Notes: generated from the letters alone by a model not told the origin. A stretch of DNA of 32,000 nt from Candidatus Saccharimonadota bacterium (GCA_965231145.1 OZ246420.1:60001-92000); one strand, 5' to 3'. Shown: positions 78 through 30,347, numbered from the stretch's first letter. Program-made: numbers and translations.

Positions 78-112
78 TTGCAGCTAGCAACTAGCAATTG
101 GCAACTAGTATG
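78..112. repeat. Word element, family 2 (CTAGCAA / GCAACTAG words), copy D
   Basis: gcagctagcaa at 80..90 equals 13480..13490. tggcaactag at 99..108 equals 22048..22057. Confidence 0.6.
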
Positions 113-559
113 CTACAATTTATCTACTATCTGCTGCCTGCGTTCTGTTGCAATGATAAGTACTTTTGCTATAGTGAGAGTATTTATTGTTTGCAGAAAA
201 CTATGGTGCAAAAAGTGTATGCTGAAGAGGCCGCGGGTATTGATTGTGGGACAAATGCGGAAAAACTGGCCAACGGCCAGTGTACGTTCAATATCTATAA
301 AACCGTGGGAATAAGAGAGCAAAATCAGGAACCAGACGCGAAGGCGTTTATAGAAGATATTTTTTTGTCTGCGACGTTTTTTATTGGTACTGTAGTGGGT
401 GTGGGGCTGATTTATTCAGGTCTTATGTATATCCTTGCAAAAGATGACGGTGCAGCCGGTAAGGCGAAAAACGGTATTAAATGGTCTCTTATCGGACTTG
501 CGCTCGTGATGTTCAGTTACACGATTATTAGGCTCGTGCAGTATATTGCTCAAGGCTAA
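110..559 (+). CDS. Small two-TM pilin-like protein (TrbC/VirB2-type, CPR 'T4SS pilin'-like), paralog 1
   Basis: Track ORF 98..559. The C-terminal half is a TM helix (FFIGTVVGVGLIYSGLMYIL), a short charged loop (AKDDGAAGKAKNG) and a second TM helix (LIGLALVMFSYTII). The ORFs at 3994 and 4483 have the same architecture and loop motif. Start is uncertain: TTG98, ATG110, or ATG203, which lies 28 nt after a TTGCAA-16-TATAGT site. Confidence 0.55.
   Translation: MLQFIYYLLPAFCCNDKYFCYSESIYCLQKTMVQKVYAEEAAGIDCGTNAEKLANGQCTFNIYKTVGIREQNQEPDAKAFIEDIFLSATFFIGTVVGVGLIYSGLMYILAKDDGAAGKAKNGIKWSLIGLALVMFSYTIIRLVQYIAQG
148..175 (+). promoter_or_regulatory. Sigma70-like promoter TTGCAA-16-TATAGT
   Basis: -35 at 148..153 and -10 at 170..175. 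It lies inside the long version of the pilin-1 ORF, 28 nt before ATG 203. Confidence 0.4.
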
Positions 560-570
560 ACGCAGTTCAA

Positions 571-641
571 GGTTCTTAAAGTTCATAAAGTAGAAACAAA
601 TAAGATTTTATGAACTTTTAACTTTATAAACTTTATAAACT
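571..641. repeat. Word-palindrome element, family 1 (GTTCATAAAGTAGAAA / CTTTATAAA words), copy A
   Basis: Perfect 11-bp hairpin aagttcataaa (579..589) / tttatgaactt (607..617). Tandem actttataa x2 at 621..640. The 19-mer 578..596 is the exact reverse complement of 26134..26152. Confidence 0.75.
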
Positions 642-646
642 GTACT

Positions 647-1339
647 ATGTTGTACACAAATATTTCTGCGGATAAGATACAGTTTATTGTCGATGGAAAA
701 GAGACGATTATTGAAAATGGGGAGCTAGAGAAAACGATTTCTCATTTTCTCAATTCACAAATCACAGGTCACAGTCCACAATTACAAAAGGTGTGTATTA
801 TTAATGGACCTGGGTCGTTTACCAATATACGCATTGTGACGCTCGCGTTGAACATGTATAACTTTTTGCATAATAACGAGCTCGATTTCTATTCGATCGA
901 TAAGATAACGCTCTATAAAAAACTGTATCAAAAAAATATTGTTCCTCGCGTGTGTTACATGTTCATTGGACAGAGAAAGAACTGGTGGCGTGTTGATCTT
1001 GAGGATGGTTCTCATGAGCAGATTCGTATAGAAGAGGTGCTGACGAGAGATGGATTTATAGATTATGTGTTTGATACAGATCATTTTCCTGGTCTTGTAG
1101 CGGGAGCTGCGCTTTCAGAGGGACACTTGCTTATTGAAAATATTCTCGATGATCTCTGAGTGACGAACTCACAATGAGGCATGATAAAGCTTTCATGGAA
1201 AGCGGAGCAGCTGGAAGTTACGTATGATAATAAGACAACATATATTTCTCTGGATGATCTTGCTGTCAGCCCGGTAAAGAGCGTAGAAGCGAATTATATG
1301 ATGGAAGCGAATGTGACACTTATCCCTCATAAAAAATAA
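647..1339 (+). CDS. tsaB: tRNA t6A37 biosynthesis protein TsaB/YeaZ-like
   Basis: Track ORF 647..1159 continues in frame through TGA 1157 and TGA 1175 to TAA 1337..1339 (230 aa). INGPGSFTNIRIV matches the GPGSFTG(L/I)R motif of TsaB. Confidence 0.65.
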
Positions 1340-1383
1340 TACATAAAAGATAAAAAATATTTATTTAGCGATATGAAGTAGAA

Positions 1384-1944
1384 ATGAGCGTAAGAAAAAT
1401 TCCCGCTGATGCGAAGAAAGTGTTTGAAAATCAGTTGTTTGTAGCATATGAGAAAGAAACAGAGTTGTTTGATGGGACGACGAAGACATTTGAGTGGGTA
1501 AGAGCATATGATGTGGTAAAGGCAATCTGTGTAGTGGATGGGAAAATTCTTGTGCTCGCAAGTGAGCAGCCATGAACAAGTACATATTATACGATCCCAG
1601 GCGGTATGATTGACAGTGGTGAAGAGCCAGATGCTGCTATAGTGAGAGAAGTGGCAGAAGAGACGGGAATCACATTTAACGAGTTTTTTCCGCTTACGTC
1701 TGTGTCGAGTAATGTAGGGTTGGTTGAATCATATAAGCACTATTATCTGGCTCGTGGTCCGCTCTCATTTGGAGAACAACAGCTTGATGGGGGTGAGCTT
1801 ATTTCGGTAGAATATATTTCTTTTGAAGATTTTATAGAACACGTGAAGCGTGGAGACCTATTCTACGATCTCGGTAATTGGTTTTTGAGAGAGTATGTTG
1901 TGCCTGGAAAGATAGATGAGTTGAAAGAGCTTTTGTTCTCATAG
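1384..1944 (+). CDS. Nudix hydrolase (ADP-ribose pyrophosphatase-like)
   Basis: Track ORFs 1384..1575 and 1606..1944 share one frame and join through TGA 1573..1575. The Nudix box GGMIDSGEEPDAAIVREVAEETGI spans the junction region. Confidence 0.8.
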
Positions 1945-2053
1945 TAAATGGTTATATTTGCTATTATGAAAATCCTCACCCTGATATAGCTCAGGGAGCT
2001 CCTTTACAAAAGGAGCCTTCTATAGAATATTTAGAATATAAAGTTGTGTAACT

Positions 2054-3793
2054 ATGTCATTAGAACTTGCGAACTTATTGTTTCCTCATGTAACGGAGAC
2101 GATTGAGGATCTGAAAAAGCGCTATCCAGCGCGTCCAGAAGGACAGCATGTGACGCGTTTTGCGCCAAGTCCAACAGGCTTTTTGCATATCGGCGGTGTT
2201 TCAACATCGTTTATTGCAGAGAGATTTGTGCATCAAAATAACGCGAAAGGCGTTATGTTTCTTCGTATAGAAGATACCGATCAGGAAAGAGGAATTGAGT
2301 GAGGAATACAGATGATTATTGATGGCTTGAAAGAGTTTCATATTCAAATAGATGAAGGACCAATTGGGAAAAACCAGGAAGATGTTGGTAACTATGGACC
2401 GTATATCCAGTCGCAGCGTAAAGATTTATACCATGCAGTAGCGAAATATTTTGTCGAGCAAGGACTCGCGTATCCATGTTGGATGAGTCCGGAAGAACTG
2501 GATGCCGTAAGAAAACAGCAACAGGATAATAAGCTTATACCTGGTATCTATGGCTCGTACTCAAAGTGGCGCGATGCTTCATTTGATGAGCAGAAAAAAA
2601 TGATAGAGCAAGGTAGCCCTTTTGTTATTCGCTTGCGTTCGCACGGAGATACAAAGAAAAGAGTAACAGTGAAAGATCTTATTAAGGGAGATGTAGAGAC
2701 GCAAGATAATTTTCTCGACGTGGTGCTTATCAAAGCGAAAGACGGCTTGCCGACCTATCATTTTGCGCATCTAGTTGATGATCATTTTATGGGAACGACG
2801 CATGTCATCCGTAGTGATGAGTGGTTCGCAAGCTTGCCGCTTCATCTGCAATTGTTTTCATTTCTCGGTGTAACGCCACCTCACTTCGCACACGTTTCGC
2901 CGCTTCTCAAGCTCGAAAATGGCAATAAGAGAAAGCTTTCTAAGCGTAAAGATAAAGAAGCAGACATTCGTTGGTTCTTTGCAGAAGGTTATCCGGTCGA
3001 TGCGATTATGGAGTTTCTCATGAACATTATCGATCCTTCTTTTGAAGAGCGACAGAAAAATAATCCGGAAAAAACGTATCTCGATTTCGTGTTTAATATC
3101 TCTCATATGAATGAGTCATGAGCTCTCTTCGATCTCGTGAAACTCGACTTTGTGTCGAAAGAGTGGCTCGCGAAGCTTGATAAGCAAACATTTGCTGATA
3201 TGTGTGTAGAGCGAGCAAAAACATATTACGAGTTACGAGTTACGAGTTACGAGTCAGGGGATAAGGGCAAGGGGATAAGGGATAACCCATGACCTATGAC
3301 CTATAACCTCTATGAGTTAATGGTGAAGCATCCTGAGTACACATTTAACGCGCTCAACATTGAACGTTGTACAGAGCTTGATCCAAAAAGATATCATAAG
3401 TTGTCTGATATCGCTGGACAATTGCCCATGTTCTATGATGAAAATTACGATGCGAACTATAGCGAAAAGCCGGCGTATCCTGAGAATATGACGCCGGACA
3501 TCGTCCGTGCGTTTGTAGAAAAATATTGCGCAGAGATGAATCTTGAGCAGGATAAAACGAGTTGGTTTGAACAATTGAAAGAGATAGGAAAAAATATGCC
3601 TGAAGGGATGAGATTTGCGACAGGTAACGCAGAGTTTAAAGAAGGATGATATGTCGGAAAGACAGGAGATCTTGCTATGTTCTTGCGTATTCAACTCTTG
3701 CTTTCGAAGACAACACCAGATCTGTGTGAGACGATGAAGGTGATGGGGAAAGAGAGGGTTATTAATAGACTTAAAAGAGCAATTACGAATTAA
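2054..3793 (+). CDS. gltX: Glutamyl-tRNA synthetase
   Basis: Track ORFs 2054, 2312 and 3296 plus a C-terminal tail share one frame. They join through TGA 2300, 3119, 3290 and 3647 and end at TAA 3791..3793 (579 aa). HIGH motif [16 protein letters not shown]-like KLSKRK, and GluRS core strings LRIEDTD, HLVDD and IRSDEW are present. Confidence 0.9.
3225..3314 (+). repeat. In-frame block of three tandem-word repeats inside gltX
   Basis: (gttacga)x4 at 3225..3255, gggataagg-type words at 3256..3285, and atgaccta-type words at 3286..3314. It translates as [29 protein letters not shown]. The 14-mer attacgagttacga at 3225..3238 recurs at 3796..3809. Confidence 0.7.
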
Positions 3794-3835
3794 TAATTAC
3801 GAGTTACGAATGAAATAGTGAGTATTGTAAATAAG

Positions 3836-3865
3836 AAAAAGCGGACCGGAAACGGCCGCTTTTTA
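3836..3865 (+). terminator. Intrinsic terminator after gltX
   Basis: Stem gcggaccg (3841..3848) / cggccgc (3853..3859), loop gaaa, then TTTTT. Confidence 0.7.
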
Positions 3866-3936
3866 GATATTGTCATTATTGCGAATGCTTTGACGATTAA
3901 GTCAATTGCTGTTGTGCTATAAATAAGCCTATATTT

Positions 3937-3965
3937 TTGCAAAAAATGGCTTTTGGCAGTATAAT
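3937..3965 (+). promoter_or_regulatory. Sigma70-like promoter TTGCAA-17-TATAAT for the pilin 2/3 operon
   Basis: -35 at 3937..3942 and -10 at 3960..3965, 29 nt before ATG 3994. Confidence 0.6.
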
Positions 3966-3993
3966 CTAAGAGTATTATTTCCTTCTTGAAACC

Positions 3994-4470
3994 ATGAAAA
4001 AGATATTATTCCCTATTCTCGGACTTTTGCTCGGACTTTCTACCAGCGCTCATGCGATCGTATTTTTTGATAACACTTCGTCGGTTTACACCAGAAACGA
4101 GCAGGATGCTGTAACAACAAACGATATCTGACCTGGTAATCCGCTCAGAGGAGGTATGGACAATCCCGGAAGAAATATAAGGGGACTCTACTACAATGGG
4201 CCTATTAACACCGTCTATCAGGCGCAAAATCAGACGCTTGGCTACGTACATAATATGCTCAACTGGGTGCTTACTTTGCTTGGCTTAATTGCTTTAGCGT
4301 ATCTTCTCTACTATGGATTTATGATCATTACCGCAGCAGGAGATGACGCAGCGGTGAAGAAGGGACGAGGCGGCATGAGAACATCTGCGATTGCGATTAT
4401 TGGTATTGCAGTGAGCTGGCTTATCGTGAGTTTCATTATCTATCTGATTGATACATTTATTCTTCTCTAA
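3994..4470 (+). CDS. Small two-TM pilin-like protein (TrbC/VirB2-type), paralog 2, with signal peptide
   Basis: ATG 3994 opens a signal peptide MKKILFPILGLLLGLSTSAHA. It is in frame with track ORF 4156..4470 through TGA 4129..4131. The C-terminus is TM (LIALAYLLYYGFMIITA), loop AGDDAAVKKGRGG, TM (IAIIGIAVSWLIV). A TTGCAA-17-TATAAT promoter lies 29 nt upstream. Confidence 0.6.
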
Positions 4471-4482
4471 TACAAAAGTACC

Positions 4483-5016
4483 ATGAAAAACACACTCAAA
4501 ACAAAAGGTATTATCGGATGGATCATCGTCGCGCTTTTGTCGGTGAAGAATATGATCCTCCGCGCGAGCGCCCTCGACATCAGCGTAGGATGGGGAGGCA
4601 TCAACATAGATCTTGGATGAGGAGGCGGATGAGGTGGATATACAAGCGAACCTTTTTACAATGAAATGAGAGGTGCTGGCGCGCCAACATCAGACGCCGG
4701 TATTCTTCTCTCTCAGACAAATCAGCGCGCAAGTCTTCTTGAAAGACTACTTGATGTGTTTGGCATAAATTACGCTGGTGATGGCAAGGCACTTAGTTAT
4801 ATACAAATTATTATTAACTATGTCTTATCGTTCACTGCGTTTATCGCGCTCATCGTGATCATCTATGGTTTTTACATGATGTTCTTCCGTGAGCAGGATA
4901 AGGGCTTTGGACAAGCAAAGAAAACAGTGACAGGAGCGGCTATCGCACTTTTTGTCATCGGTATCTCATGGCTGTTTGTAAACTTCGCGTTCTACGTGTT
5001 TAATCAAGGGTTCTAA
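4483..5016 (+). CDS. Small two-TM pilin-like protein (TrbC/VirB2-type), paralog 3, with signal peptide and Gly8 tract
   Basis: ATG 4483 (MKNTLKTKGIIGWIIVALLSV...ASA) is in frame with track ORF 4666..5016 through TGA 4618 and TGA 4630. The C-terminus is TM (FIALIVIIYGFYMMFF), loop REQDKGFGQAKK, TM (AIALFVIGISWLFV). It starts 13 nt after paralog 2. Confidence 0.6.
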
Positions 5017-5023
5017 AAATAGC

Positions 5024-5090
5024 AGTTAGATTATAGATGTTAGATGTTGGCAAAATAAGGTTGCTATAATCTAAAATCTAACATCTAAGT
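5024..5090. repeat. Word-palindrome element, family 3 (TTAGATTATAGAT / CTAACATCTAA), copy G
   Basis: The left arm ttagattatagatgttagatgtt pairs with the right arm ctataatctaaaatctaacatctaa. The 13-mer 5026..5038 equals 29005..29017. The 11-mer 5078..5088 equals 29037..29047. Confidence 0.75.
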
Positions 5091-5127
5091 GCTGCATATG
5101 TGCTTTATACTTTAGCTTTACAGAACT

Positions 5128-5847
5128 ATGGCTTTTAAGCTGTTCAACTTCGAGAAGGGAAAGATACAGAAGGGAGTGCATGACCAGGTGTTTAACACTG
5201 AGACGATGCTTCCTATTTCTGAGATCAGAGGTGATACGATCGTCCTAAAAGATGGATGACTCAGAGGTGTCATCAGGGTATCAGGTCTCAATCTTGATCT
5301 GAAAAATGCAGATGAGCAGGATGTGGTTATCCAGCAATATAAAAGATTTCTCAATGGTCTGGATTTTCCTATTCAAATACTTGTTCGTAGTACCTATCTC
5401 GACCTGACGCATTATCTTGGATATATGAATGACAATGTGAATATCATTGAAAATGATGTGCTGAAACAGCACGGTCAGCAGTATGTAGATTTTCTTGATA
5501 AAATAAATCTGGCGCAGGGTTTGATCTATGTGAAGGAGTTTTACATAGTTGTTCCGTATTATGCAGATGCGGTATCGGAAGATGAAGCGAATATGAAAAA
5601 GCCCTGGTGGAAAAAGTTTCTTGATGTACTTGAAAGTAAAGATAGCGCAGAAAAGATCGTGGAAAGATATCGTGGATTTGTGAAAAATAGAAAGTTTCTC
5701 GATACAAGATGTTCGCTTATCAAGGAGGGGTTGAGGGGAATGAATATAGATACTGATAGACTCGAACTTACTGATATCGTAGCGCTGCTGTTTAAGTTTT
5801 ATAATCCAACTATGCATAACGATCAGGCGGAACTAACGAACAAATAA
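5128..5847 (+). CDS. Stand-alone VirB4/TrbE-family N-terminal domain protein (no ATPase domain)
   Basis: ATG 5128 is in frame with track ORF 5323..5847 through TGA 5257..5259 (239 aa). ISEIRGDTIVLKDGGLRGVIRVSGLNLDLKNADEQDVVIQQYKRFLNGLDFPIQILVRS...FYIVVPYY follows the N-terminal pattern I recall from Gram-positive/CPR VirB4-type conjugation ATPases (Tn916 Orf16/TcpF type). No Walker A motif is present. The ORF ends at TAA 5845 and no ATPase sequence follows in any frame. Confidence 0.5.
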
Positions 5848-5853
5848 ACTTAA

Positions 5854-5918
5854 AGATCAGAGATCAGAGAGCAAAAAATTAATAAGGTACGTTATTTCAT
5901 TCTGCTCTTTGCTCTTTC
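5854..5918. repeat. Word-palindrome element, family 5 (GATCAGAG / AGAGCAAA words), copy K
   Basis: Tandem agatcag x2, with gagagcaaa (5868..5876) pairing with tttgctctt (5908..5916). The 20-mer 5892..5911 is the exact reverse complement of 12641..12660. Confidence 0.8.
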
Positions 5919-6010
5919 ACCTTTTAGTTTGCCAAGAAAACATTATACATGATAGGTATAATGTTTTTTTTTATTGTGCGCGAGAACTAATGCTGTGAGT
6001 TGCAAGCTTA

Positions 6011-6688
6011 ATGATAGGTCTAACCACGCAATATACGTACTTGTCACCTATTGTTGGTGATGGTTCGTCGTATGTATATGCGCAGCAGCTCGACATCACG
6101 AGTGATGATAGTATCACGAGATATGTTGCGCCAAATGCGCCTCTCAATTTTCTTCGTTACAAGCCAAATGATCTTGTTTCATTGGTCGAATCTCCATTTA
6201 TCCGGGTGCAGTGAGGAGTGTGATTTCTCAGGCGCGAAGCGTTTGATCAACTTTCTGATATGGCTTATCACTTCCATGCGATCTTTAACAAACGTCTTGT
6301 TGTCGTAAGTTCGTATAGAAGCTTTTGACTGCAAAATACATTATTCGCAGGCTATATGGAGACACATGGTCTTGCTGCTGCAGGGTTTTCTGCGCTTCCG
6401 GGACATAGCGAACATCAGCTCTGACTTGCTGCAGATTTGTTCACCGCTAACAGCGCTGATGTGAAAGGATACAATGGTTACTATGACTGGCTTCAAAGAA
6501 ATGCACATAGACGATGATGGATCCAATCCTATCAGAAATGAAGAGAGGTTGATGGATATGTAGTAGAGCCATGGCACTGGCGTTATGTGGGAAGAGAGCT
6601 TGCTACCTTGCTTTATCTGAAACAGATGACTTTTGCAGAGTGGGTAACGAAATATAAGAAGATAGTGATTATTACGAAGAAGTTATAG
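6011..6688 (+). CDS. Peptidase M15 D-alanyl-D-alanine carboxypeptidase (VanY/LdcB-like)
   Basis: One frame reads from ATG 6011 (alternative ATG 5990) through six TGA codons (6212, 6221, 6326, 6422, 6515, 6539) to TAG 6686..6688. Motifs SSYRSF-G-LQ, GHSEHQL-G-LAADL and EPWHWRYVG are the zinc-binding and catalytic signatures of VanY-type M15 peptidases. Confidence 0.8.
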
Positions 6689-6722
6689 AGACTCATATGA
6701 AAAGATGTCAGCATGATCAAAG

Positions 6723-6750
6723 AAACATTGCCAAGTGGCAATGTTTTTGT
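6723..6750 (+). terminator. Intrinsic terminator after the M15 peptidase gene
   Basis: Stem aaacattgcc / ggcaatgttt with loop aagt, followed by a T-run. Confidence 0.7.
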
Positions 6751-6807
6751 TATGTAAAATACTGACGTGAACGGCGCGACGACGGACGACGCATTAACGA
6801 TGAGTCC

Positions 6808-7884
6808 CTATAATGAGGAGATGAAATTTACCTCCGGTTCGATCTCTATTCATAGTTTTTCATAACATTCTTGCTGTATCTTTTCTGCAAATTGCACAAC
6901 TTCTGGTCATGTTGCATTGGCGTAATTAACAAGACAGAGCGCTTGCTCTGGCCGACAGCCGACGTCTCATTCGCGATGTCCGCGATATCAGAGTAGCTGA
7001 TCGATGATCCGACCAGCAGGGATCTTATATTCATTTGGCGATACTTCATAACTGACAGGCGAGAGATCTGGATGACGACGTGCGACTCTTTGTATGAAAG
7101 CATCATATTGCTCTTTATTCAAATAGACGTTCTTAAAAAAGCTGCCGGCTGTTCACACATTTTTAGGATCAGGGAGCTTGCTTGCTCTTATGGCAGCGAC
7201 GACATTTGCCATGTCTTGGGGTGTGGGAGAGCTTATTCACTGCTTGGCTAATTCCTGCTTGATAGCTCCATACTCAACAAGCGGCTTATAACTTTCGCTC
7301 GCGTAGCGCTGCAGGCGAAACGTCACGTCAGTGACGAAAAAAATATCTTTAAATTCATGTTTGAAAATACTGTCGCGATAGCAGAAGGCGCATTGTTCGT
7401 TGGTTAATGAGAGAGACGTGCCGCGGCCCATCTCTACAGATGATATCGCAATTCATCCAACGTTTGCTATAACATCTTTTGCTTCTACGCCATATGCGCC
7501 GATGTTTTGTATAGGTGCAGCTCCGACGCTTCCGGGGATACTGATGAGGTTTTCTAATCAACATAATCATTTATTTATCGTCCACTGGACGAACTCATTT
7601 CGGCTTTCGCCAGCTCAGACCTTCACGTATACGCCATCTTCCGCTTCGCGAATCTCTTTTCAGAGAATATTGTTGCGTATTACTAATCCATGAAATGCTG
7701 GCTCAGTCAAAAGAATATTCGAGCCTCCGCCGAGGAAAAGCTTTTTGCGAGCTGTCGTCCATTCTGGAGTCGTAAGAAGATCAAGAAAATCTTGAGATGT
7801 ATGCACGTCTGCAAAGTGATCTGTTATGCAATCAATATGAAACGTATTGTATGGTAAGAGTGATATATTGGCTTGGATCTGCAT
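6808..7884 (-). CDS. murB: UDP-N-acetylenolpyruvoylglucosamine reductase
   Basis: The track shows only fragments (7660..7884, 7237..7431). The full frame reads through 11 TGA codons to TAG 6808..6810 (358 aa). Recognisable strings: [54 protein letters not shown] and a C-terminal GIEIEPEV. Confidence 0.85.
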
Positions 7885-7985
7885 GAAAAAGAGAGATTTA
7901 TATAAGATATATGAGTACTATATGTAAATAGCCGATAGAAAAAAGTCCTTCTCTTTTGTTTAAAAAGGTGGACTAATATATGAGT

Positions 7986-7999
7986 AGAACGTTCGTTCT
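7986..7999. promoter_or_regulatory. Possible LexA (Cheo-type) box aGAAC-gttc-GTTCt in the murB/recA divergent region
   Basis: GAAC-N4-GTTC at 7987..7998, 115 nt upstream of the recA start. Confidence 0.3.
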
Positions 8000-8113
8000 A
8001 TTAGTAAGATGTTTGACATTATCGTAAGTAAGTTTCTCGTAGACGTTAATGGGGTTGTTTTCGTAAAAAAAGTGACTATGACTACGAACGTTTTATTATT
8101 AATTCTTTTGAAG

Positions 8114-9178
8114 ATGGCAAGTAAGAACCAGGTATTGGATGAAGCAAGAAAGAACATTGAGAAGAAATTTGGAAAGGGAGCGATTATTCGTATGGGTGAC
8201 AGTAGTAATGTATGACTCGTGACGACATTTCATTCGGGATCGTACGTATTAGATCTTATCTTAGGAGGAGGATATCCTGAAGGTCGTGCGATCGAGATCT
8301 ATGGACCAGAATCATCAGGTAAAACTACTATAGCGCTTAATGCTATTGCGCAAATGCAAAAGCGTGGTGAAACATGTGCGTTCATCGATGCGGAGCATGC
8401 ATTGGATCCAGGATATGCGCGTGTGCTTGGTGTAGATACAGAAAACTTATTGCTTTCTCAGCCCGACTATGGTGAGCAAGCACTCGATATTGCAGAAGAG
8501 CTTGCGAAGACAGGAGCCGTAAAACTTATCGTTATCGACTCAGTAGCTGCGCTTGTACCAAGAGCCGAAGTGGAAGGAGACATGGGAGACAGTCATATGG
8601 GTCTTCAGGCTCGTATGATGTCACAATGACTCAGAAAACTCACATCTATCATGGCGAAGACAGGAACGACGATCATCTTTATTAACCAGATTCGTATGAA
8701 GATCGGTGTGATGTTTGGTAATCCTGAGACAACAACAGGTGGTAACGCATTGAAATTCTACGCATCACAAAGACTTGAGATCAGACGTGGTGAAAAGATT
8801 GAAGAAAATAAGGAACTTATCGGATATGCAACAAAGGTAAAGGTAGTAAAAAACAAGATTGCAGCTCCGTTTAGAGCAGCTGAGATACCTATCAGATTTA
8901 AATCAGGTATCGATAAGGGACTTGATGTGATCGAAGCAGCAAGCATCTTAGGACTTATACAGAAGTCAGGAGCATTTTATACTGTTCCAGGCAAGAAGGA
9001 GAAAATCCAAGGTAAAGACAGACTTCTCGAAATGTTTAAGTCTGATGAAAAGCTCTTTAACTCACTCAATACTGATATTCAGAACAAGATCAAAGAAGTT
9101 CGTCTTGGAAAAAATATCATCCCAGAGAAAGCTCTTGAGGAGATAGAAGAGATGGAAGATATGGAAGACGAAGAATAA
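8114..9178 (+). CDS. recA: Recombinase RecA
   Basis: Start ATG 8114 ([25 protein letters not shown]). Track ORFs 8009, 8219 and 8651 share one frame and join through TGA 8216 and TGA 8630. Walker A is [39 protein letters not shown] is near-identical to E. coli RecA. Confidence 0.95.
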
Positions 9179-9181
9179 CAT

Positions 9182-11144: not shown

Positions 11145-11169
11145 AGTAATCACACAAATAACAAACTCT

Positions 11170-11543: not shown

Positions 11544-11546
11544 GTA

Positions 11547-21200: not shown

Positions 21201-22012
21201 AGCTTAAGAGCTTTGTTTTTCGCTTCACCCTTAAATCCACCAAAGTCTTTGATAAGATCTTTGATTTCTTTCTCTACATTTACATTTGAAAGGAGTTTAT
21301 AGATAGCTTCAGAACCAGATTTGAAACTAAGAATATCATCAAATCTCCAGAAAATATTTCTGTAATCACTTTCGAGGATAGTTGCGCTTGTCTTAAGGTT
21401 TGCTACCACAGACTTGATTCTGTTGAACTCTTTTTCAATATTATTCTTGTTGTCTGCGTAAAGCTTTTCTACATCGTTTTTCTTTGTAGAGTTCACAGCT
21501 TCCTCTTTGTAGAGCGCCTCGATCTCTTCAAGCTTTGTCTTGTAGTCCGCCTCAAGTCTTTTGAAAATTTCTTTCTTGTCAGCCTCTGATACGTCGTTGA
21601 TAAGAACATACTTCACGAAGTAGAGAATCTTTTCGATCTCGTTTACTGAGAGATTGAGAAGAAGACCAATCCTTGAAGGAGTAGCTTTGATATACCATAC
21701 GTGGATAACTGGGGCGGCGAGTTCTACATGTCCCATCCTTTCTCTTCTTACTCTCGATGTTGTTACTTCAACACCACAGCGCTCACATACAATTCCCTTA
21801 TATCTCACACCTTTATATTTTCCACATCCACATTCATAGTTCTTCATAGGTCCGAAAATGGCTTCACAAAAAAGCCCTCTGGGTTTTGGCTTCCCAGTTC
21901 TATAGTTGATAGTATCAGGACTATCTACTGAACCGAACGACCATTTTGCGATGTTCTCTGGTGAAGCAAGCGTCACCATCAGTCCATCAAAATGAGATTT
22001 TTCCATATGCAA
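18206..22012 (-). CDS. rpoC: DNA-directed RNA polymerase subunit beta'
   Basis: Track ORFs 20786..22012, 20021..20734 and 18215..19984 share one frame and join through TGA 20786 (GRSVITV-G-PQL) and TGA 20021 (LKDR-G-FKYA). TGA 18215 is also read through, giving ...EEIT-G-NE and TAA 18206..18208. The catalytic NADFDGDQM motif is present; 1268 aa. Confidence 0.95.
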
Positions 22013-22035
22013 TACACACTAATAAACTAAATAGT

Positions 22036-22079
22036 TAGAGTAGCAGATGGCAACTAGCAGAGGCGCTCATAGAGCGCCT
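22036..22079. repeat. Word element, family 2, copy F, plus adjacent GC hairpin
   Basis: tagagtagcagatggcaactagcag, followed by the hairpin aggcgctc-ata-gagcgcct (22061..22079). Confidence 0.55.
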
Positions 22080-22099
22080 TCGGTCTACTAATCACTAAA

Positions 22100-22180
22100 C
22101 ATAGTTCATAAAGTAGAAGGTTTATAAAGTAGAAACATTAAAGTAGTTTTAACTTCATAAACGTTACAAACTTTATACTG
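22100..22180. repeat. Word-palindrome element, family 1, copy B (rpoB-rpoC spacer)
   Basis: gttcataaagtagaag at 22105..22120, followed by gtttataaagtagaaac and attaaagtag, then cttcataaac and aactttatac words. Confidence 0.65.
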
Positions 22181-22185
22181 TTGTG

Positions 22186-25770
<3,585 letters not shown>

Positions 25771-25802
25771 GAAGAGGAGATGAATAAATTAAAATAATAT
25801 GC

Positions 25803-25830
25803 AAAAAATCCCCAAAGGGAGACCCTGTGG
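25803..25830 (-). terminator. Intrinsic terminator after rpmH, upstream of rpoB
   Basis: On the minus strand: ccacaggg, loop tct, ccctttgg, then ggaTTTTTT. Confidence 0.55.
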
Positions 25831-25912
25831 ATTAGTTTTGCCAGCTGCTTGCTAAAATCATGCGCGCGTTATGTAGCATAGAGCAGGAATATAGTGATAT
25901 GGAGGGTAAAAA

Positions 25913-26071
25913 TTACGACTTTTGTTGTACTGTGAGAGCATGTCTTCCTTTTGCTCTTCTTCTTGAGAGAACGGCTCTTCCGGTTCTTGTAAGCATTCTA
26001 GCTCTGAAACCATGTGTTCTCATTCTTTTGAGCCACTGGAGCTTTCTCACTCTATTTAACTTACTTGGCAT
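25913..26071 (-). CDS. rpmH: 50S ribosomal protein L34
   Basis: Too short for the ORF track. The minus-strand translation is [52 protein letters not shown] (52 aa), which matches the bL34 core HGFRARM....GR.VL..RRAKGR..L. Confidence 0.85.
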
Positions 26072-26078
26072 GTGCGAG

Positions 26079-26153
26079 AGTTTATAAAGTTAAAGGTTTA
26101 TAAAGTTTATAAAGTGAAAGATTGTTTATGAACTTTCTACTTTATGAACTTTT
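26079..26153. repeat. Word-palindrome element, family 1, copy C (inverted orientation)
   Basis: tttataaagt words x3, then tttatgaac x2. The segment 26134..26152 is the exact reverse complement of 578..596. Confidence 0.75.
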
Positions 26154-26155
26154 GA

Positions 26156-26725
26156 CTAATGTGTATAAGCTAATACCCCAAGTTCTCTTGCTCTGATGAT
26201 AGCACGTCTTACCTTCTTTTGATGCTTTACTCTGTTTCCCATGAACGCTCTTGGTTTGATATTTCCAAATCTTGTTGTATAGTGTTTCAATAGATTTACA
26301 GCTTTCCAATTGATGTTAGAGATCGTAGCATCATCTTCGAAAAATCCTTTTTTCACTGTAATATTTTTTCCTTTTGCGTCTTTTTCCTGTTCCCATGTTT
26401 TGTTGATCTCAGCATATGAGATAAACTGTTCGCTAGGAGCCATAAGGAAAAACGCAAACCTAATCAAACCTTTCATGATACCAAAAGCCGCCTTAAGAGA
26501 CTGTACCTTGTCGCCAGAAAGTTCAAGGTGATATGAAATGAAGTAAGCCTGCTTAAGCTTAAGCTTTGTAATATCGTGAGTAAGAGTAGTCATACCCATG
26601 TCGTCAGTAGCAATGATCTTTCCTCCGCTGTTCGCGAGGAGCTTCTGAATGTCATTTACGAGTTTTTCATGATCATCCTTGCTGAGCTGAGGCTGTAAAA
26701 GGATAACGAGTTCATAATTTTTCAT
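26156..26725 (-). CDS. rpsF/rpsR: Fused 30S ribosomal proteins S6 (N-terminal) and S18 (C-terminal) in one ORF
   Basis: The single open frame 26156..26764 has no stop of any kind. The likely start is ATG 26725 (MKNYELVILLQPQLS..., bS6-like through ...LIRFAFFLM). The C-terminus VKKGFFEDDATISNINWKAVNLLKHYTTRFGNIKPRAFMGNRVKHQKKVRRAIIRARELGVLAY is bS18-like. Confidence 0.8.
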   Translation of the reverse strand: MKNYELVILLQPQLSKDDHEKLVNDIQKLLANSGGKIIATDDMGMTTLTHDITKLKLKQAYFISYHLELSGDKVQSLKAAFGIMKGLIRFAFFLMAPSEQFISYAEINKTWEQEKDAKGKNITVKKGFFEDDATISNINWKAVNLLKHYTTRFGNIKPRAFMGNRVKHQKKVRRAIIRARELGVLAYTH

Positions 26726-26796
26726 AATACTTACATAAGAAGAATATAAAGGGTGATAGGTCAAATGCCGTAGGCACCATACAACCTTGTTAACAA

Positions 26797-26858
26797 ACAG
26801 ACATAGATTTCTAGATATAGATAGAGGCCCTATGTCTCTATCTCCTGCCTCTGTCTAT
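26797..26858. repeat. Word-palindrome element, family 6 (TTCTAGATA / CTCTGTCTA words), copy M
   Basis: agacatag/ctatgtct, gatagag/ctctatc and cagac/gtctg-type arms can pair. The 9-mers 26809..26817 and 26849..26857 recur reverse-complemented at 30330..30338 and 30299..30307. Confidence 0.65.
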
Positions 26859-26868
26859 TTTTAGTATG

Positions 26869-27678
26869 TTAGATAGCAAATCTCTTATAGTCAGTGATTT
26901 CGAGGTGTCCAGTTACGAACTCCTTTACTTTCTTGCTGTCATCCCAGATAGCAGACTGTTCAAGAAGAACATAGTCAGCAAACTCCTTATCGAGTCTTCC
27001 TGCTACAATCTTTTCGATAATATCTGCTGGCTTTCCAGAACTTGCAAGCTCTGCTGTTATTGCCTCCTTTACTTGAGCGATCTTATCTGCTGGTACATTT
27101 GCCATAGAAAGATATTCAGGATTCATAGCTGCAATCTGTAACGATACATTTTTTGCGATAGCTTCTGCATCAGCGGCAAGACCATTGTAGTAGAGGACTG
27201 CAGCGATCTTGTCTCCAGGATGAGAGTAGACGAAAGCGTTTGCTGTATGAATGAACGCATCAGCAAGCTTTACATTTTCACCGATCTTACCGACAAATTC
27301 ATGTACGAGAGCATTCCAAGATGCCTTAACACCTTCATCTACCTGATCGAGAGATGTAAAGTCTTTTCCGTAAGATTTTACCTCATCAAGAAGCTTGTTA
27401 GTGAGCTCTACGAAAAGATCATTTTTTGCAACAAAGTCTGTTTCACATGCAATCTTGATACCAACAACTCTTTCTCCATCCTTAACAACCTTTACAACAC
27501 CTTCGTGCGTCTCTCTGTCCGCTTTTTTTGCAGCAGCAGCGGCCCCCTTTTTCTTGAGCCACTCCATCGCAGCATCGAAGTCTCCGTTCGCTTCCACGAG
27601 CGCATCTTTACAGTCCTTAAGAGGAGCAAAACTTGTATCTCTGAGTTTCTTCAGAAGATTCATATCTATGTTACTCAT
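26869..27678 (-). CDS. tsf: Translation elongation factor Ts
   Basis: Start ATG 27678 (MSNIDMNLLKKLRDTSFAPLKDCKDALVEANGDFDAAMEWLKKKG is the UBA-like N-terminus of EF-Ts). IACETDFVAKND is the core motif; 269 aa. Confidence 0.9.
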   Translation of the reverse strand: MSNIDMNLLKKLRDTSFAPLKDCKDALVEANGDFDAAMEWLKKKGAAAAAKKADRETHEGVVKVVKDGERVVGIKIACETDFVAKNDLFVELTNKLLDEVKSYGKDFTSLDQVDEGVKASWNALVHEFVGKIGENVKLADAFIHTANAFVYSHPGDKIAAVLYYNGLAADAEAIAKNVSLQIAAMNPEYLSMANVPADKIAQVKEAITAELASSGKPADIIEKIVAGRLDKEFADYVLLEQSAIWDDSKKVKEFVTGHLEITDYKRFAI

Positions 27679-27706
27679 ATGTCTATCAGCGATAGTAACT
27701 AAAAAT

Positions 27707-28171
27707 TTATAATATCTTAGTGTCGTTAGGGCTTGGCGTATCGTTGCTATGCACAGACGTCTCAATGAGTTCTATGCGCAGTGAGAATATATCTACCACC
27801 CATCCACCTAGTCATTCGAACAATGGGAGAAAAACCTTATCTGACTTGAACGAGGTAAATCTTCCATCCCACGCCTGCTGAGCGAATATAACCCACACAA
27901 TCAAAAGGACAAAATAGAAAATGAATGGCAACACTTTTACATACGGAAGTAGTATCAGTATGATAGAAGGTATAAGGAGAAGGAAGAAAATTACCCATCG
28001 TCCCATCGCTTGTTTACAATGGAAAAACTCGTATTTTGTCATCTTTCCTTGCGTCAATGAGATGAGAATGCCCCACAAAACATACATCAGGATGCTCTTT
28101 TTTCTTTCAAGAGCTCCTGGTACGTAGTTTTGTGCTATCAATTGATCAATCTCATTTTGCTCTGCAGCCAT
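27707..28171 (-). CDS. Hypothetical membrane protein inserted between rpsB and tsf
   Basis: Track ORF 27812..28171 ends at TGA 27812. Under table 25 it continues to TAA 27707..27709 (154 aa). It has three hydrophobic helices. Its start lies 4 nt after the rpsB stop and its end 28 nt before the tsf start. There is a loose by-eye resemblance to DUF4870-type proteins only. Confidence 0.5.
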
Positions 28172-28174
28172 ACA

Positions 28175-28837
28175 CTATTTGTTTAGGATATATGAGAGTC
28201 CAAAATCAAGACTCTGGTAACTATCAACGTTTGCAACAACGAGACTGTCCTTATTCCACCGAGTATCAAAATTTGTTGATGCGATAACGATGTTGTCGAG
28301 ACCAATCTTTTCGAGCTCTTTTACGAACTTCATCATAGATTTTCCATCTACAACCACGACGAGATCAGGTCTCTTCTTAAGGTTCTTAACTCCCTTATAT
28401 ATCATTTCTACTTTCTTGAGTTTTCTTTGTTGAGTAAGCTGTTCTTTCTTAGTGAGCTTATGAAAATCCTCACTTTCGATGAAAGATCTAAGCTCGTTCA
28501 TCCCTCTAATTCTTGTAATAAGCGTATCAAAGTTTGTGAGAAATCCAGCAGGAACTTTGTAGTTGAGGTAGTGAAACCCCTCCTTCGTACCCATCTGAGC
28601 TATTTCATCAGCATAGAGACTCTTTTCGCAAATAACGAGAATTTCTTTTCCAGCTTTCTTTGCTTCTTGGAATTTCACCTTTGCTTGTTCCAGTTGTGTT
28701 GCAATCTTATCTGGATCTATGATAACAAGACCATTTTTGATATCAAGCCAAAATGATCTTGTTTTCGTGCTAGCAAGCTTCTTGATGTTTCCAATATGCA
28801 TGTGTGCTTTAAGCACGTCTTGCTTGGTAACAGCCAT
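28175..28837 (-). CDS. rpsB: 30S ribosomal protein S2
   Basis: 220-aa uninterrupted ORF. LKAHMHIGN at the N-terminus and PDLVVVVD...IVIAS follow the uS2 pattern. It lies upstream of tsf, as is typical. Confidence 0.9.
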   Translation of the reverse strand: MAVTKQDVLKAHMHIGNIKKLASTKTRSFWLDIKNGLVIIDPDKIATQLEQAKVKFQEAKKAGKEILVICEKSLYADEIAQMGTKEGFHYLNYKVPAGFLTNFDTLITRIRGMNELRSFIESEDFHKLTKKEQLTQQRKLKKVEMIYKGVKNLKKRPDLVVVVDGKSMMKFVKELEKIGLDNIVIASTNFDTRWNKDSLVVANVDSYQSLDFGLSYILNK

Positions 28838-28871
28838 ACTAAATATACTAAATAAACTAAAAGGTATGTTA

Positions 28872-28932
28872 TCTTAAGACGTAAAACTGAAAACCTAAAA
28901 AAGTTTTGAGTTTAGTCTTGAGCTTTTAGTTC
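28872..28932. repeat. Word-palindrome element, family 4 (AAAACCTAAAA / AGTTTTGAG), copy I
   Basis: aaaacctaaaa at 28890..28900 and agttttgag at 28902..28910. Both recur at 29497..29507 and 29516..29524. Confidence 0.65.
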
Positions 28933-29002
28933 AATAAGTTCAGCAAGGAGCAGAACTCCATTTACGCCGTTCTTACGAACATATTCTATACTTAATCAGT
29001 GC

Positions 29003-29062
29003 AATTAGATTATAGATATGAGATTGTAGCACCTTGCTAACATCTAATATCCAACATCTAAC
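29003..29062. repeat. Word-palindrome element, family 3, copy H
   Basis: ttagattatagatatgagattgtagc ... gctaacatctaatatccaacatctaa, in the same orientation as copy G. Confidence 0.75.
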
Positions 29063-29074
29063 CGCTCGTTAAAA

Positions 29075-29455
29075 TTATTTAAGGTTAACAGTAGCTCCAG
29101 CTTCCTGAAGTTTGTTTTGCATAGTTTCACCTTCTTCCTGTTTTGCGTTTTCCTTGATAACAACAGGAGCTTTTTCTACGAGGTCTTTAGCAGCCTTAAG
29201 GTCGATGTTAAGAAGTTCCTTAACCACCTTGATAACCGCGATCTTCTGCTGACCAGCGTCAGTAAGCTCTACATTTACGCTGTCTTTAGCAGCTCCACCT
29301 TCGTCACCTCCAGCTGAAGCACCACCAGCTACTACCATAGCAGCAGCAGTTACGCCAAATTCTTCTTCGAGTGCAGTTACGAGAGCAGCGAGTTCAACTG
29401 CTGTAAGTTCTTTTACGAGATCAAAGATCTTCTGTGCTTTATCAGTAAGTGTCAT
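29075..29455 (-). CDS. rplL: 50S ribosomal protein L7/L12
   Basis: 126 aa. It has an N-terminal dimerisation helix, an Ala/Gly hinge (AAAMVVAGGASAGGDEGGAA) and a C-terminal domain (KIAVIKVVKELLNIDLKAAKDLVEKAP). Confidence 0.9.
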   Translation of the reverse strand: MTLTDKAQKIFDLVKELTAVELAALVTALEEEFGVTAAAMVVAGGASAGGDEGGAAKDSVNVELTDAGQQKIAVIKVVKELLNIDLKAAKDLVEKAPVVIKENAKQEEGETMQNKLQEAGATVNLK

Positions 29456-29493
29456 TGTTGATTACAAATAATAAGAATAAAAAGGGTTCAAAT

Positions 29494-29545
29494 CTTAAAA
29501 CCTAAAACTTAAATCAGTTTTGAGGTTTTAGTTTTAGGTTAGTTT
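29494..29545. repeat. Word-palindrome element, family 4, copy J (rplJ-rplL spacer)
   Basis: cttaaaacctaaaacttaaa / agttttgaggttttagttttagg forms an imperfect hairpin. Confidence 0.65.
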
Positions 29546-29546
29546 G

Positions 29547-30059
29547 TTAGTTCGTTTCTTTCTTCGCAATAGCGTCGAGAGTTCCAACGAGTTTCTGTAC
29601 TGGATGCTTGAGAAGGAAAAGGAGTTTTCCAACAAGCTCTTCTTTTGAAGGAAGAGTAGCAAGTGCGCTTACATAAGCAGCATCTTTCCACTGTTTGTCG
29701 AACCATCCACCTACGTATTCAAATCCGTACTTCTTTTCAGCCTTTTTAAGAGATTTGATGTACTTTTGTACTTCCTTGAGAGGAGCGAACTCATCTGTCG
29801 TCGAATAGAGTACCACTATAGCACCATCGAGGTCCTTGTGTTCCACCATTTCATACCCTGCATCTGCAAGAGATCTAAGGAAGAGTCTCTTTCTTACGAT
29901 GTTGAGCTTGCCTCCGACATTGTCGAGAGAGATTCTCAATCCGTTAGACTCATTTACTGGGATCCCAGACTGTTTGAGGATAATGACGTTTGTGGCAGAT
30001 GAGAGATCTGTTCCATATCCCTTGATGAGGCTTTTCTTTTGGTCTTTTGAAATTGCCAT
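29547..30059 (-). CDS. rplJ: 50S ribosomal protein L10
   Basis: Start ATG 30059 (MAISKDQKKSLIKGY...), 170 aa, immediately upstream of rplL. The track ORF begins 26 codons earlier at a less plausible start. Confidence 0.85.
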   Translation of the reverse strand: MAISKDQKKSLIKGYGTDLSSATNVIILKQSGIPVNESNGLRISLDNVGGKLNIVRKRLFLRSLADAGYEMVEHKDLDGAIVVLYSTTDEFAPLKEVQKYIKSLKKAEKKYGFEYVGGWFDKQWKDAAYVSALATLPSKEELVGKLLFLLKHPVQKLVGTLDAIAKKETN

Positions 30060-30250
30060 CGTGTGCCCGTCATAATATAAAATAAAAAAATGTCCCTGAG
30101 GAGAGGAACAAGGCATACAAAAAACATTGCAGTGCAATCTTATCTGTAGCCAATTACCTCGGTAGGAGATTGCTCATTAAATCAGCTAGAACGCTGATAC
30201 CTACTGTCTTTGTATAATTGGTAACGATTCGTATTGCTCGAATCACAGAT

Positions 30251-30278
30251 ACTATACTAATTCACTATCTAAATACAA
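30251..30278 (-). promoter_or_regulatory. Possible promoter TTGTAT-16-TATAGT for rplJ-rplL
   Basis: Read on the minus strand, the -35 is at 30278..30273 and the -10 at 30256..30251. This would give a leader of roughly 185 nt. Confidence 0.3.
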
Positions 30279-30296
30279 GAGAAAAAAGACACAAAC

Positions 30297-30347
30297 ACTA
30301 GACAGAGATATAGGTCTTGCCTTGGTCTCTATCTAGAATCTCTGTTT
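30297..30347. repeat. Word-palindrome element, family 6, copy N (inverted)
   Basis: ctagacagaga pairs with tctctatctag (10 of 11). It lies directly 3' of the VirB6-like gene stop. Confidence 0.65.

Follow-up and report, generated by a model that had tools for sequence, protein, structure and literature searches.

Word-built palindromic repeat families in the intergenic spacers of a UGA-recoded candidate-phyla bacterium

What occupies the gaps between the genes in a 32,000-nt stretch of DNA from a Candidatus Saccharimonadota bacterium (GCA_965231145.1 OZ246420.1:60001-92000; this whole stretch is referred to as the window)? The original prediction held that most spacers carry AT-rich elements in which a short word is repeated in tandem and then followed by its approximate reverse complement, that at least six families of such "word palindromes" recur at distant loci, and that they resemble repetitive extragenic palindromic (REP) sequences, bacterial interspersed mosaic elements (BIMEs) or Rickettsia palindromic elements (RPEs) more than transcription terminators. 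The elements do exist, and there are more of them than expected by chance. An element or array is present in about 17 of the 31 spacers, and about one third of the intergenic DNA consists of repeat hairpins. Judged by comparison with a sister genome, spacers acquire, lose and swap elements over the time that separates sister species, and the promoters, leaders and GC hairpins that flank them are conserved. With slightly better than even confidence we regard them as non-autonomous, non-coding, hairpin-forming intergenic repeat families which behave like REP/BIME sequences or MITEs (miniature transposable elements with inverted repeats) and are built differently.

Tandem Repeats Finder located 27 short arrays in the window, among them arrays with periods 7 (n = 11) and 9 (n = 8). 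When the intergenic DNA (4,009 nt) was compared with dinucleotide shuffles, 27 near-exact tandem duplications of period 7 were counted (shuffle mean 5.9, maximum 12) and 8 of period 9 (shuffle mean 0.5, maximum 2). Periods 5, 6, 8 and 10-12 were not enriched in intergenic DNA, and coding DNA showed no period-7 excess. The predicted surplus of words over shuffled controls is therefore borne out for intergenic DNA only, and the proposed word length of 7-10 nt narrows to 7 or 9 nt, 8 and 10 having dropped out. Each word consists of a conserved 5-nt core (AAAGT, TAGAT, CTAGC, AAAAC or AGATC/GCTCT) and a variable spacer of 2 or 4 nt, which explains why only periods 7 and 9 are enriched.

The elements are AT-rich and 42-86 nt long. 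One arm is a short tandem array of words and the second arm is the same array inverted, such that either strand can fold. Hairpins of 15 of the 17 intergenic candidates beat 200 dinucleotide shuffles on at least one strand (z -3 to -7), while the mean z of coding controls was -0.5. The stems comprise 14-30 pairs, arranged as 5-6-bp helices that are split by 1-2-nt internal loops at the word period. It is the cores that pair; the spacers of the two arms are not complementary and do not co-vary, and the number of words can differ between arms. Note that these periodic mismatches cause most elements to be missed when palindromes are searched for strictly and without gaps, and that raw sliding-window folding energy did not separate spacers from coding DNA. 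The arms have a fixed polarity: in 16 of 18 hairpins, representing all seven independent families, purines prevail in the 5' arm and pyrimidines in the 3' arm, and wherever family-1 arms are paired, in all loci taken together, (AAAGT)n precedes (ACTTT)n (9 to 0). A stop-like triplet is fused to the first family-1 word in 55% of cases (background 34%) and closes a long open reading frame (ORF) in 10 of 46, an observation on which we do not rely. None of the elements matched an Rfam covariance model at E <= 1, the only credible match being the L10 leader (30075-30230). Contigs of four sequencing runs match the window identically and extend it by 8.4 kb to the left and 7.5 kb to the right; an assembly artefact is thus ruled out as the origin of the repeats. 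In total, about 48 kb of this genome and about 14 kb of the sister genome were readable. The elements and arrays are as follows, with the strand given where one was assigned.

78-136: F2a, four tandem copies of GCAACTA (80-108) with a weak complement (z 0.2/-1.0) in the spacer that separates divergent thrS and pilin genes; a tandem heptamer array only, not a stable hairpin
562-643: F1a, family-1 word palindrome (z -3.2/-4.2) filling the spacer from the stop at 559 to the start at 647
about 3226-3310, plus strand: three abutting tandem-heptamer arrays inside gltX, without a hairpin (z -0.5)
3777-3809, plus strand: TTACGAG/TTACGAA array spanning the gltX stop codon, with a canonical terminator after it (about 3839-3868)
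5020-5095: F3a, family-3 palindrome with TAGAT core and 2-nt spacer (z -6.2/-7.0; similarity z 14.7), its stem made of 5-6-bp helices with 1-2-nt internal loops between them
5846-5930: F5a, family-5 palindrome (AGATCAG... / ...TGCTCTT; similarity z 19)
11036-11078: F1d, one-armed family-1 array directly upstream of a murC-like start on the minus strand (similarity z 7.5)
12620-12705: F5b, family-5 palindrome (folding z -4.6 on the minus strand)
13465-13536: F2b, family-2 palindrome (z -5.4/-5.9) in the divergent spacer between rnc and the ORF at 13634
14882-14943: two tandem copies of TGTTAAA plus a hairpin upstream of nusB; 95% conserved in the sister genome and hence not turning over
18003-18047: F1e, one-armed array of family 1 immediately upstream of where rpmA starts on the minus strand (similarity z 8.9), replaced by other words in the sister genome
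18046-18087: TAGTAGA.../...TCTACTA hairpin in the rpoC-rpmA spacer (z -4.1/-4.6), partly conserved in the sister genome
22032-22096, minus strand: GC hairpin (22059-22083) with GCAACTAG-type flanking words in the rpoB-rpoC spacer
22099-22183: F1b, family-1 palindrome just after the rpoB stop
26072-26157: F1c, family-1 palindrome (z -6.5/-4.7) between the stop of an rpsF-rpsR fusion (26156) and the rpmH start (26056)
26797-26864: F6a, family-6 palindrome after the tsf stop
28836-28861: tandem 9-mers, ATACTAAAT x2.9, adjoining the rpsB start and conserved in the sister genome
28877-28918: F4a, family-4 hairpin upstream of rpsB (z -3.9), kept at the orthologous site of the sister genome
28998-29066: F3b, palindrome of family 3 that follows the rplL stop (minus-strand folding z -6.1), absent from the related locus L121
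29490-29556: F4b, family-4 palindrome in the rplJ-rplL spacer (core 29499-29540, z -5.2), followed by TTTTTATT
30293-30347: F6b, family-6 palindrome at the stop of the ORF 30349-32000, upstream of the rplJ promoter and the L10 leader and followed by TTTTTT

Membership in families was tested by local alignment against 300 shuffles. Family-1 pairs reached z 8-12 and family 3 z 14.7, and the two family-5 copies, F5a and F5b, aligned with their loops included (score 40, z 19). Values were lower for family 4 (z 5.5), family 6 (z 5.5, 1 of 300 shuffles) and the pair F2a-F2b (z 5.7). On these alignments, families 1, 3 and 5 are strongly supported and families 2, 4 and 6 moderately so. The six predicted families are retained with this gradation, and two of their proposed members changed status: the copy at 78 is an array, and the one at 22036, weakly similar to family 2 (z about 3), is a conserved GC hairpin. 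An all-versus-all BLAST of the spacers yielded 30 matches with scores of 19-29, where shuffled maxima were 14-19. Long exact strings reported for distant copies were found again, namely a 19-mer at 578-596 and 26134-26152 and a 20-mer within 5892-5929 and 12623-12660. Families number 2-5 copies in the 48 kb, and the flanking 16 kb contain further family-4 copies and TAAAT-word arrays.

Orthologous spacers were compared in the sister genome (L203/L204 and L205), which was found by looking up exact matches to the RplL and L32 proteins. Its RplL is identical and the aligned gene stretches are 85-90% identical at the nucleotide level. Coding regions, the rplJ promoter, the L10 leader, the GC hairpin between rpoB and rpoC and the hairpin after rpoC are conserved. 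In seven orthologous spacers with conserved flanks, the sister palindrome is built from different words:

F6b spacer: TCACAAT palindrome in the sister
F4b spacer: GATAC/GTATC palindrome in the sister
F3b spacer: TCGAAAATCGA palindrome in the sister
F6a spacer: family-4-like element in the sister
F1c spacer: ATCGA words in the sister
F1b spacer: TCACAAT palindrome in the sister
F2b spacer: family-3-like element in the sister

Another spacer, between rpmA and rpmF, holds a GATAC palindrome of about 60 nt in the sister only. The sister families are themselves dispersed. TCACAAT is present in two copies in different slots that are 92% identical, GATAC likewise in two copies in different slots (86-88% identical), and two sister contigs begin with the same repeat. 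The family-3-like and family-4-like elements of the sister match window copies that reside in other slots (72-85% identity). Some elements have stayed in place, namely F4a, the array of 9-mers at 28836 and the element upstream of nusB at 14882. Different families in orthologous slots together with the same families in other slots point to turnover of the kind known from REP and MITE repeats, and the comparison of orthologous spacers that had been proposed as a test of mobility thus came out in favor of exchange. In the rpoB-rpoC spacer, the GC hairpin at 22059-22083 has undergone a compensatory change from C:G to U:A in the sister. A GC-richer, terminator-like hairpin after rpoC (18123-18177, minus strand) is likewise conserved there with compensatory changes. 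These two GC hairpins are probably functional RNA structures, acting as attenuator or terminator.

More distant relatives differ in their load. Heptamer arrays occur at 3.4 per 10 kb in this genome and 4.9 in its sister, at 0.77 in other loci with RplL identity of at least 60% and at 0.49 in distant loci. L121 (RplL 87%) has spacers of 35-78 nt without elements, and at the position of F6b it carries a canonical terminator. In L140, L147, L148 and L150, word palindromes made of yet other words are present in the rplJ-rplL or rplL-rpsB spacers. Taken together, the comparison of relatives indicates a lineage-specific expansion that turns over between slots.

The elements could in principle be a neutral by-product, arising from slippage of 7- and 9-nt units combined with quasi-palindrome template switching, devoid of mobility or function, with the shared words as mutational attractors. 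Enrichment that is specific to periods 7 and 9 fits such an origin, as do the variable word number between copies, arrays that seem to begin in local sequence (for example the end of rplJ) and the existence of one-armed arrays and of in-frame arrays in coding sequence. Heptamers are, moreover, over-represented among the simple sequence repeats of many bacteria, for which polymerase slippage has been suggested in earlier work cited in PMC4692102. We nevertheless consider this explanation improbable. It accounts neither for similarity over 60-85 nt between loci tens of kb apart nor for the same families in different sister slots, and it leaves the strict arm polarity (9:0) unexplained, along with a density four- to sevenfold above that of relatives with presumably the same replication machinery.

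Elements lie immediately 3' of genes, as predicted, right after stop codons in co-directional gene strings. Twelve palindromes are located between co-directional genes, three or four in divergent spacers and none in a convergent spacer. Those between co-directional genes usually begin 0-12 nt past the stop codon and often extend almost to the next start. Canonical terminators with a GC stem and a T-run are found at convergent spacers and operon ends (9182, 14148, 14248, 15886, 16405, 16904 and 17431). A terminator scan yielded 33 sites in 1-18300, where 12.3 were expected, and 10 sites in 17300-32000 (9.6 expected), the part with the ribosomal protein/rpo string and most of the elements. Canonical terminators are thus not enriched in this string, and the word palindromes occupy operon-like spacers without them; no word palindrome of the window was reported in the scan as a canonical terminator, defined by a GC-rich stem of at least 5 pairs and a 3-8-nt loop with a T-run behind it. 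As had been proposed, most elements lack a T-run; read in the direction of transcription, T-rich tracts do come after F6b, F4b and F5a.

These findings bear on a further explanation, in which the elements represent an unusual, AT-rich type of intrinsic terminator or attenuator that evolves where it stands. A hairpin would be required at each slot to tune the ribosomal protein/rpo super-operon, its sequence could drift and lengthen by slippage without constraint, and the families would reflect convergence. The location right after stops and the three T-rich tails agree with this, and so do the canonical terminator of L121 in place of F6b and the fact that the hairpin slot is conserved between the sisters when its sequence is not. 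With purine-rich 5' and pyrimidine-rich 3' arms, furthermore, transcripts in either direction would have a weak RNA-DNA hybrid behind the hairpin. However, similarity of distant copies over their full length, loops included, cannot be the result of convergence, and family-3-like and family-4-like elements are found in different slots of the two genomes. Several elements reside in divergent promoter spacers (78, 11036 and 13465), and several adjoin start codons or occupy the rpoB-rpoC spacer, positions at which efficient termination would do harm. A T-run is mostly lacking, none of the elements was recovered in the terminator scan, and L121 does without them. We therefore think it unlikely that the elements are terminators evolving in place. 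Note, however, that the arm polarity is that of A-tract/hairpin/T-tract bidirectional terminators, and that this polarity and the equivalence of one slot with a relative's terminator bring the elements closer to terminators than had originally been supposed.

The anatomy of the words raises yet another possibility, that of multi-site platforms for a DNA- or RNA-binding protein which reads 5-nt cores at 7-nt spacing and for which the hairpin potential would be secondary; such a protein might belong to the nucleoid, resemble a transposase or be a ring-shaped RNA binder. Conserved cores next to variable spacers that are not complementary between the arms would be expected of binding sites, one-armed arrays beside start codons would fit as well, and the family-1 core AAAGT recurs across phyla. 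Set against this, at least 10 different cores in two small genomes would require as many specificities, families are freely swapped at a slot, spacings of 7 and 9 bp are off the helical repeat, and no candidate protein was identified. We rate this as very improbable. Likenesses to HutP/TRAP-like binding to UAG-N4 repeats and to the T7 epsilon enhancer (TTAACTTTA) are loose analogies only.

How far do the words extend beyond this lineage? A genome collection was scanned for the family-1 16-mer AGTTCATAAAGTAGAA, which returned at least 117 stretches; the source genome was not among the matches listed. About 49 of these at least 117 stretches share the architecture of the elements, and about 68 of the listed matches are chance matches in coding DNA. 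The 49 have G+C contents of 28-54%, 47 of them are intergenic, and all 49 use the standard code, as concluded from long ORFs under translation table 11. Hosts among the matches listed are Bacteroidota, Ignavibacteria, Omnitrophota and many Patescibacteria, the Bacteroidota including the isolate Butyricimonas synergistica DSM 23225 and long-read Saprospiraceae contigs. Several listed stretches share exact strings of 28-29 nt with window positions 26125-26152. The vocabulary (C/G)AGTTYATAAAG / AGTAGAAAG is common to UGA-recoded Absconditabacterales-like bacteria, several classes of Patescibacteria and Bacteroidota including cultured Butyricimonas. Long AAAGT-core arrays and palindromes were seen in B. 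synergistica DSM 23225 (L035, 5980-6130) and in L054, L067 and L108 (a Saprospiraceae metagenome-assembled genome). The AAAGT arrays of Bacteroidota are intermixed with arrays of words such as GCTGAAT, ATAAACG and CGCAGAG, and those of Saprospiraceae are mostly one-armed and occur several times per spacer.

The exact family-1 19-mer had no match in 2.9 million viral contigs. A BLAST search with the family-1 consensus against plasmids and phages also gave no match, a result that is probably uninformative since the low-complexity filter was on. The other families found no match outside the sister genome in 1.6 Mb of comparison sequence, and an unbiased sample of relatives contained almost no family-1 copies. 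The window could accordingly represent one local outbreak of an unrecognised cross-phylum class of word palindromes, defined by 5-nt cores at 7- or 9-nt spacing with the purine-rich arm always first. We regard this as doubtful. If it were true, it would imply either conserved cellular machinery that recognises and propagates the arrays or transfer of 60-90-nt non-coding DNA between phyla, and the elements would replace terminator or attenuator hairpins in their spacers.

With regard to described repeat systems, the closest precedent is provided by the convergent heptamer pairs of Xanthomonas. Intergenic heptamer repeats have been reported as (GGGAATC)n in Xanthomonas, as (GGGGAYT)n in Nostoc and as short tandemly repeated repetitive (STRR) heptamers in cyanobacteria (PMC4692102). 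Xanthomonas genomes contain 70-75 convergent plus/minus pairs each, which can form stem-loops and lie near the ends of upstream ORFs; about 90% of these repeats are intergenic, mostly between co-oriented genes, their length varies among related species, and they are transcribed and of unknown function (PMC4692102). The elements described here share with the Xanthomonas and Nostoc repeats tandem 7-nt units with a conserved core and intergenic enrichment (here 27 versus 5.9 at period 7), and with Xanthomonas two convergent arrays that together form an inverted repeat close to where the upstream ORF ends, as well as the arm polarity. In contrast, those genomes use one G-rich word each, for which a G-quadruplex role has been proposed, whereas at least six AT-rich families and additional 9-nt units are present here. 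While 83% of the Xanthomonas repeats keep place and type between species, the family in a slot is replaced in the sister of our genome. The host also differs, belonging here to a UGA-recoded lineage of the Candidate Phyla Radiation.

REP/BIME sequences and REP doublets forming hairpins (REPINs) resemble the elements as short, imperfect, dispersed extragenic palindromes that usually lie 3' of genes and within operons. REP/BIME sequences also come in several families per genome, are sometimes clustered and are non-autonomous; mRNA stabilisation, attenuation and protein binding have been suggested as their roles. The original prediction was right in this respect, insofar as the families are dispersed and are not canonical terminators. 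Membership in REP/BIME, and likewise in RPE, is not established. REPs are GC-rich, 20-40 nt long and free of tandem words, as opposed to AT-rich elements of 42-86 nt built from 7- or 9-nt words. A GTAG or CGTC tetranucleotide is conserved at one end of the REP palindrome (PMC3733652). No such head is common to the ends of our elements, and GTAG occurs only inside some family-1 and family-2 words. REPs are moreover associated with a single-copy, REP-flanked gene for a REP-associated tyrosine transposase (RAYT) and with long vertical persistence, unlike the present families, which turn over between sister genomes.

Bacterial MITEs such as Correia elements and BrickBuilt share the small size, AT-richness, lack of coding capacity, inverted ends, hairpin fold and location in spacers that are transcribed (presumably so for our elements), and also presence/absence polymorphism, here seen in the rpmA-rpmF spacer, the seven replaced slots and L121 without elements. 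In Porphyromonas gingivalis, BrickBuilt has tandem repeats inside it in addition to inverted repeats, and contains a minisatellite (PMC4596501). MITEs differ in having defined terminal inverted repeats, target-site duplications and a parent insertion sequence, none of which was found here in a small sample; in our case the inverted repeat spans the entire element, with the tandem units forming its arms. RPEs are comparable as dispersed palindromic repeats of a reduced genome with a possible in-frame location in genes, as in the GltX insertion and the rnc tail described below. They are, however, palindromes of 100-150 nt with unique sequence, and the GltX insertion consists of tandem heptamers that form no hairpin (z -0.5). 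Bidirectional intrinsic terminators likewise follow stop codons and are purine/A-rich 5' and pyrimidine/T-rich 3' on both strands, and one slot holds a canonical terminator in a relative. The elements depart from them by AT-rich, long, interrupted stems mostly without a T-run, by their positions inside essential operons and divergent spacers, by forming repeat families and by coexisting with true terminators in the same window. Integron attC sites were rejected in view of the core genes and the absence of R'/R'' cores, DNA uptake sequences because the number of different words is too large, iterons or operator arrays because the families are too many and are swapped between slots, and CRISPR because there are no spacers of that kind. 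A survey of inverted repeats in 118,065 genomes ranks Candidatus Gracilibacteria second of all phyla in density without characterising the repeats (bioRxiv 10.1101/2024.09.29.615628). Sequence-string and keyword searches of the literature found no description of these elements or words. The earlier claim that they had not been described agrees with these searches for the elements themselves, and is qualified by this survey and by the Xanthomonas heptamer pairs (PMC4692102).

We return to the reading of the elements as non-autonomous repeat families, against which a number of observations have to be weighed. Copies within the genome are only about 70-92% alike, and palindromic low complexity inflates alignment scores. 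The filled and empty versions of the rpmA-rpmF spacer and the edges of the slots revealed, in a small sample, neither a target-site duplication nor a common boundary motif, and neither a transposase nor a conserved terminal motif was seen in the 48 kb of this genome and the 14 kb of the sister. No Y1 transposase domain was among the Pfam calls of this genome's 48 kb, no search having been aimed at RAYT. That the same slots are filled in both genomes could reflect selection for a hairpin there rather than insertion preference. The missing co-variation between the spacer dinucleotides of the two arms also counts against the repeat-family reading. Folding energies of sense and antisense strands are mixed (about 6 stronger, 7 weaker), and, showing no consistent bias, they offer no direct indication that the transcribed strand is under selection at the RNA level. 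The sharing of family-1 words across phyla, finally, is left unexplained by this reading; transfer, a conserved trans-acting factor and convergence are all conceivable. At the loci inspected, a small sample, no ORF was bracketed by opposite arms.

If the elements are such repeat families, the number of words would change by slipped-strand mispairing, and whole elements would be copied into stop-adjacent spacers, or replaced there, by a trans-acting enzyme or by template switching. The periodic mismatches would keep the palindrome tolerable at the DNA level. From their position, the elements should be transcribed as part of operon mRNAs and may act there as stem-loops. Given the arm polarity and the slot that in a relative holds a terminator, the likeliest roles would be attenuation that is leaky and works both ways, or that of a hairpin protecting or processing the 3' end; processing by RNase III may be equally possible.

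Word arrays are not restricted to spacers. GltX (gltX, 2054-3793, plus strand) contains a lineage-specific, in-frame insertion of 24 amino acids that is absent from its closest homologues (71% identity). It is encoded by TTACGAG x4, GGGATAA-like x4 and ACCTATG x3.6, and apart from TTACGAG words at 3777-3809 it has no intergenic family member. The last ten or so codons and the stop codon of rnc (minus strand) lie within the left arm of F5b (12669-12705), which seems to have given rnc a new C-terminal tail. In the ORF 647-1339 (plus strand), heptamers TCACAAA/TCACAGG/TCACAGT/CCACAAT at 757-790 resemble the TCACAAT family of the sister (20 nt at 90%).

The gene map was derived from table-25 translations and Pfam scans of the window, the G+C content of which is about 40%. 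UGA is a sense codon, as rpoC (18206-22006) and rpoB (22186-25770) are uninterrupted only under table 25, and the nearest named homologues of its glutamyl-tRNA synthetase stem from Absconditabacterales, SR1 and Gracilibacteria (about 50% identity). The first half of the window lies mainly on the plus strand and comprises pilin-like genes, NUDIX, gltX, VanY and recA as well as four paralogues encoding small membrane proteins. On the minus strand, an extended run makes up the second half: a large membrane protein, the L10 leader, rplJ, rplL, rpsB, a membrane protein gene, tsf, an S6-S18 fusion, rpmH, rpoB, rpoC, rpmA and rpmF. Between about 17000 and 18000 the genes, until then mainly on the plus strand, switch to the minus strand, and the sign of the GC skew flips there too, which is compatible with a replication terminus or with mere coding-strand bias.

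Some genes of the window deserve mention in their own right. High conservation in the sister genome revealed rpmH (L34; 25921-26056, minus strand), a small gene between F1c and rpoB whose protein had no record in an exact-protein look-up. A single ORF of 189 amino acids with ribosomal S6 and S18 domains (26156-26725, minus strand) looks like an rpsF-rpsR fusion. A GAAC-N4-GTTC palindrome of the LexA/Cheo-box type is located at about 7988-7999, upstream of recA (start 8114). The four tandem paralogous genes for small membrane proteins (15048-16989, plus strand), of which the sister genome has fewer copies, mostly possess a near-consensus TTGACA-16-TATAAT promoter and a canonical terminator each, and these modules have been duplicated too (15902-16014 versus 16422-16535). 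Three small genes at 203-559, 3994-4470 and 4483-5016 (plus strand) resemble pilins of type IV secretion systems; two match Pfam PF18895, and in the third the resemblance is limited to a hydrophobic C-terminal segment. By eye and without statistics, no recognisable Shine-Dalgarno sequence precedes the starts of rplL, rpsB, rpoB, rpoC and tsf (for example 29456-29475, 28838-28850 and 22007-22020), and several starts are instead directly preceded by ACTTT-type word arrays.

Candidate-phyla bacteria have tiny, tightly packed genomes, and to our knowledge almost no mobile DNA biology has been described in this lineage. If the elements are mobile, they would constitute a repeat system in a lineage whose mobile DNA is barely known. 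The kind of element as such, heptamer pairs and REP- or MITE-like repeats, is known but poorly understood; what is new is the combination of at least six AT-rich palindrome families made of 7- or 9-nt words that are replaced between sister genomes. In practical terms, such repeats break short-read assemblies and are usable as strain markers. Should they serve as attenuators or RNA-processing hairpins, they would show how operons are tuned in organisms with few regulators. The words of 7 and 9 nt and the strict arm polarity offer a handle on the long-noted and unexplained excess of heptamers in bacteria, and the vocabulary common to Bacteroidota and other Patescibacteria raises the question of what besides descent makes non-coding words recur across phyla.

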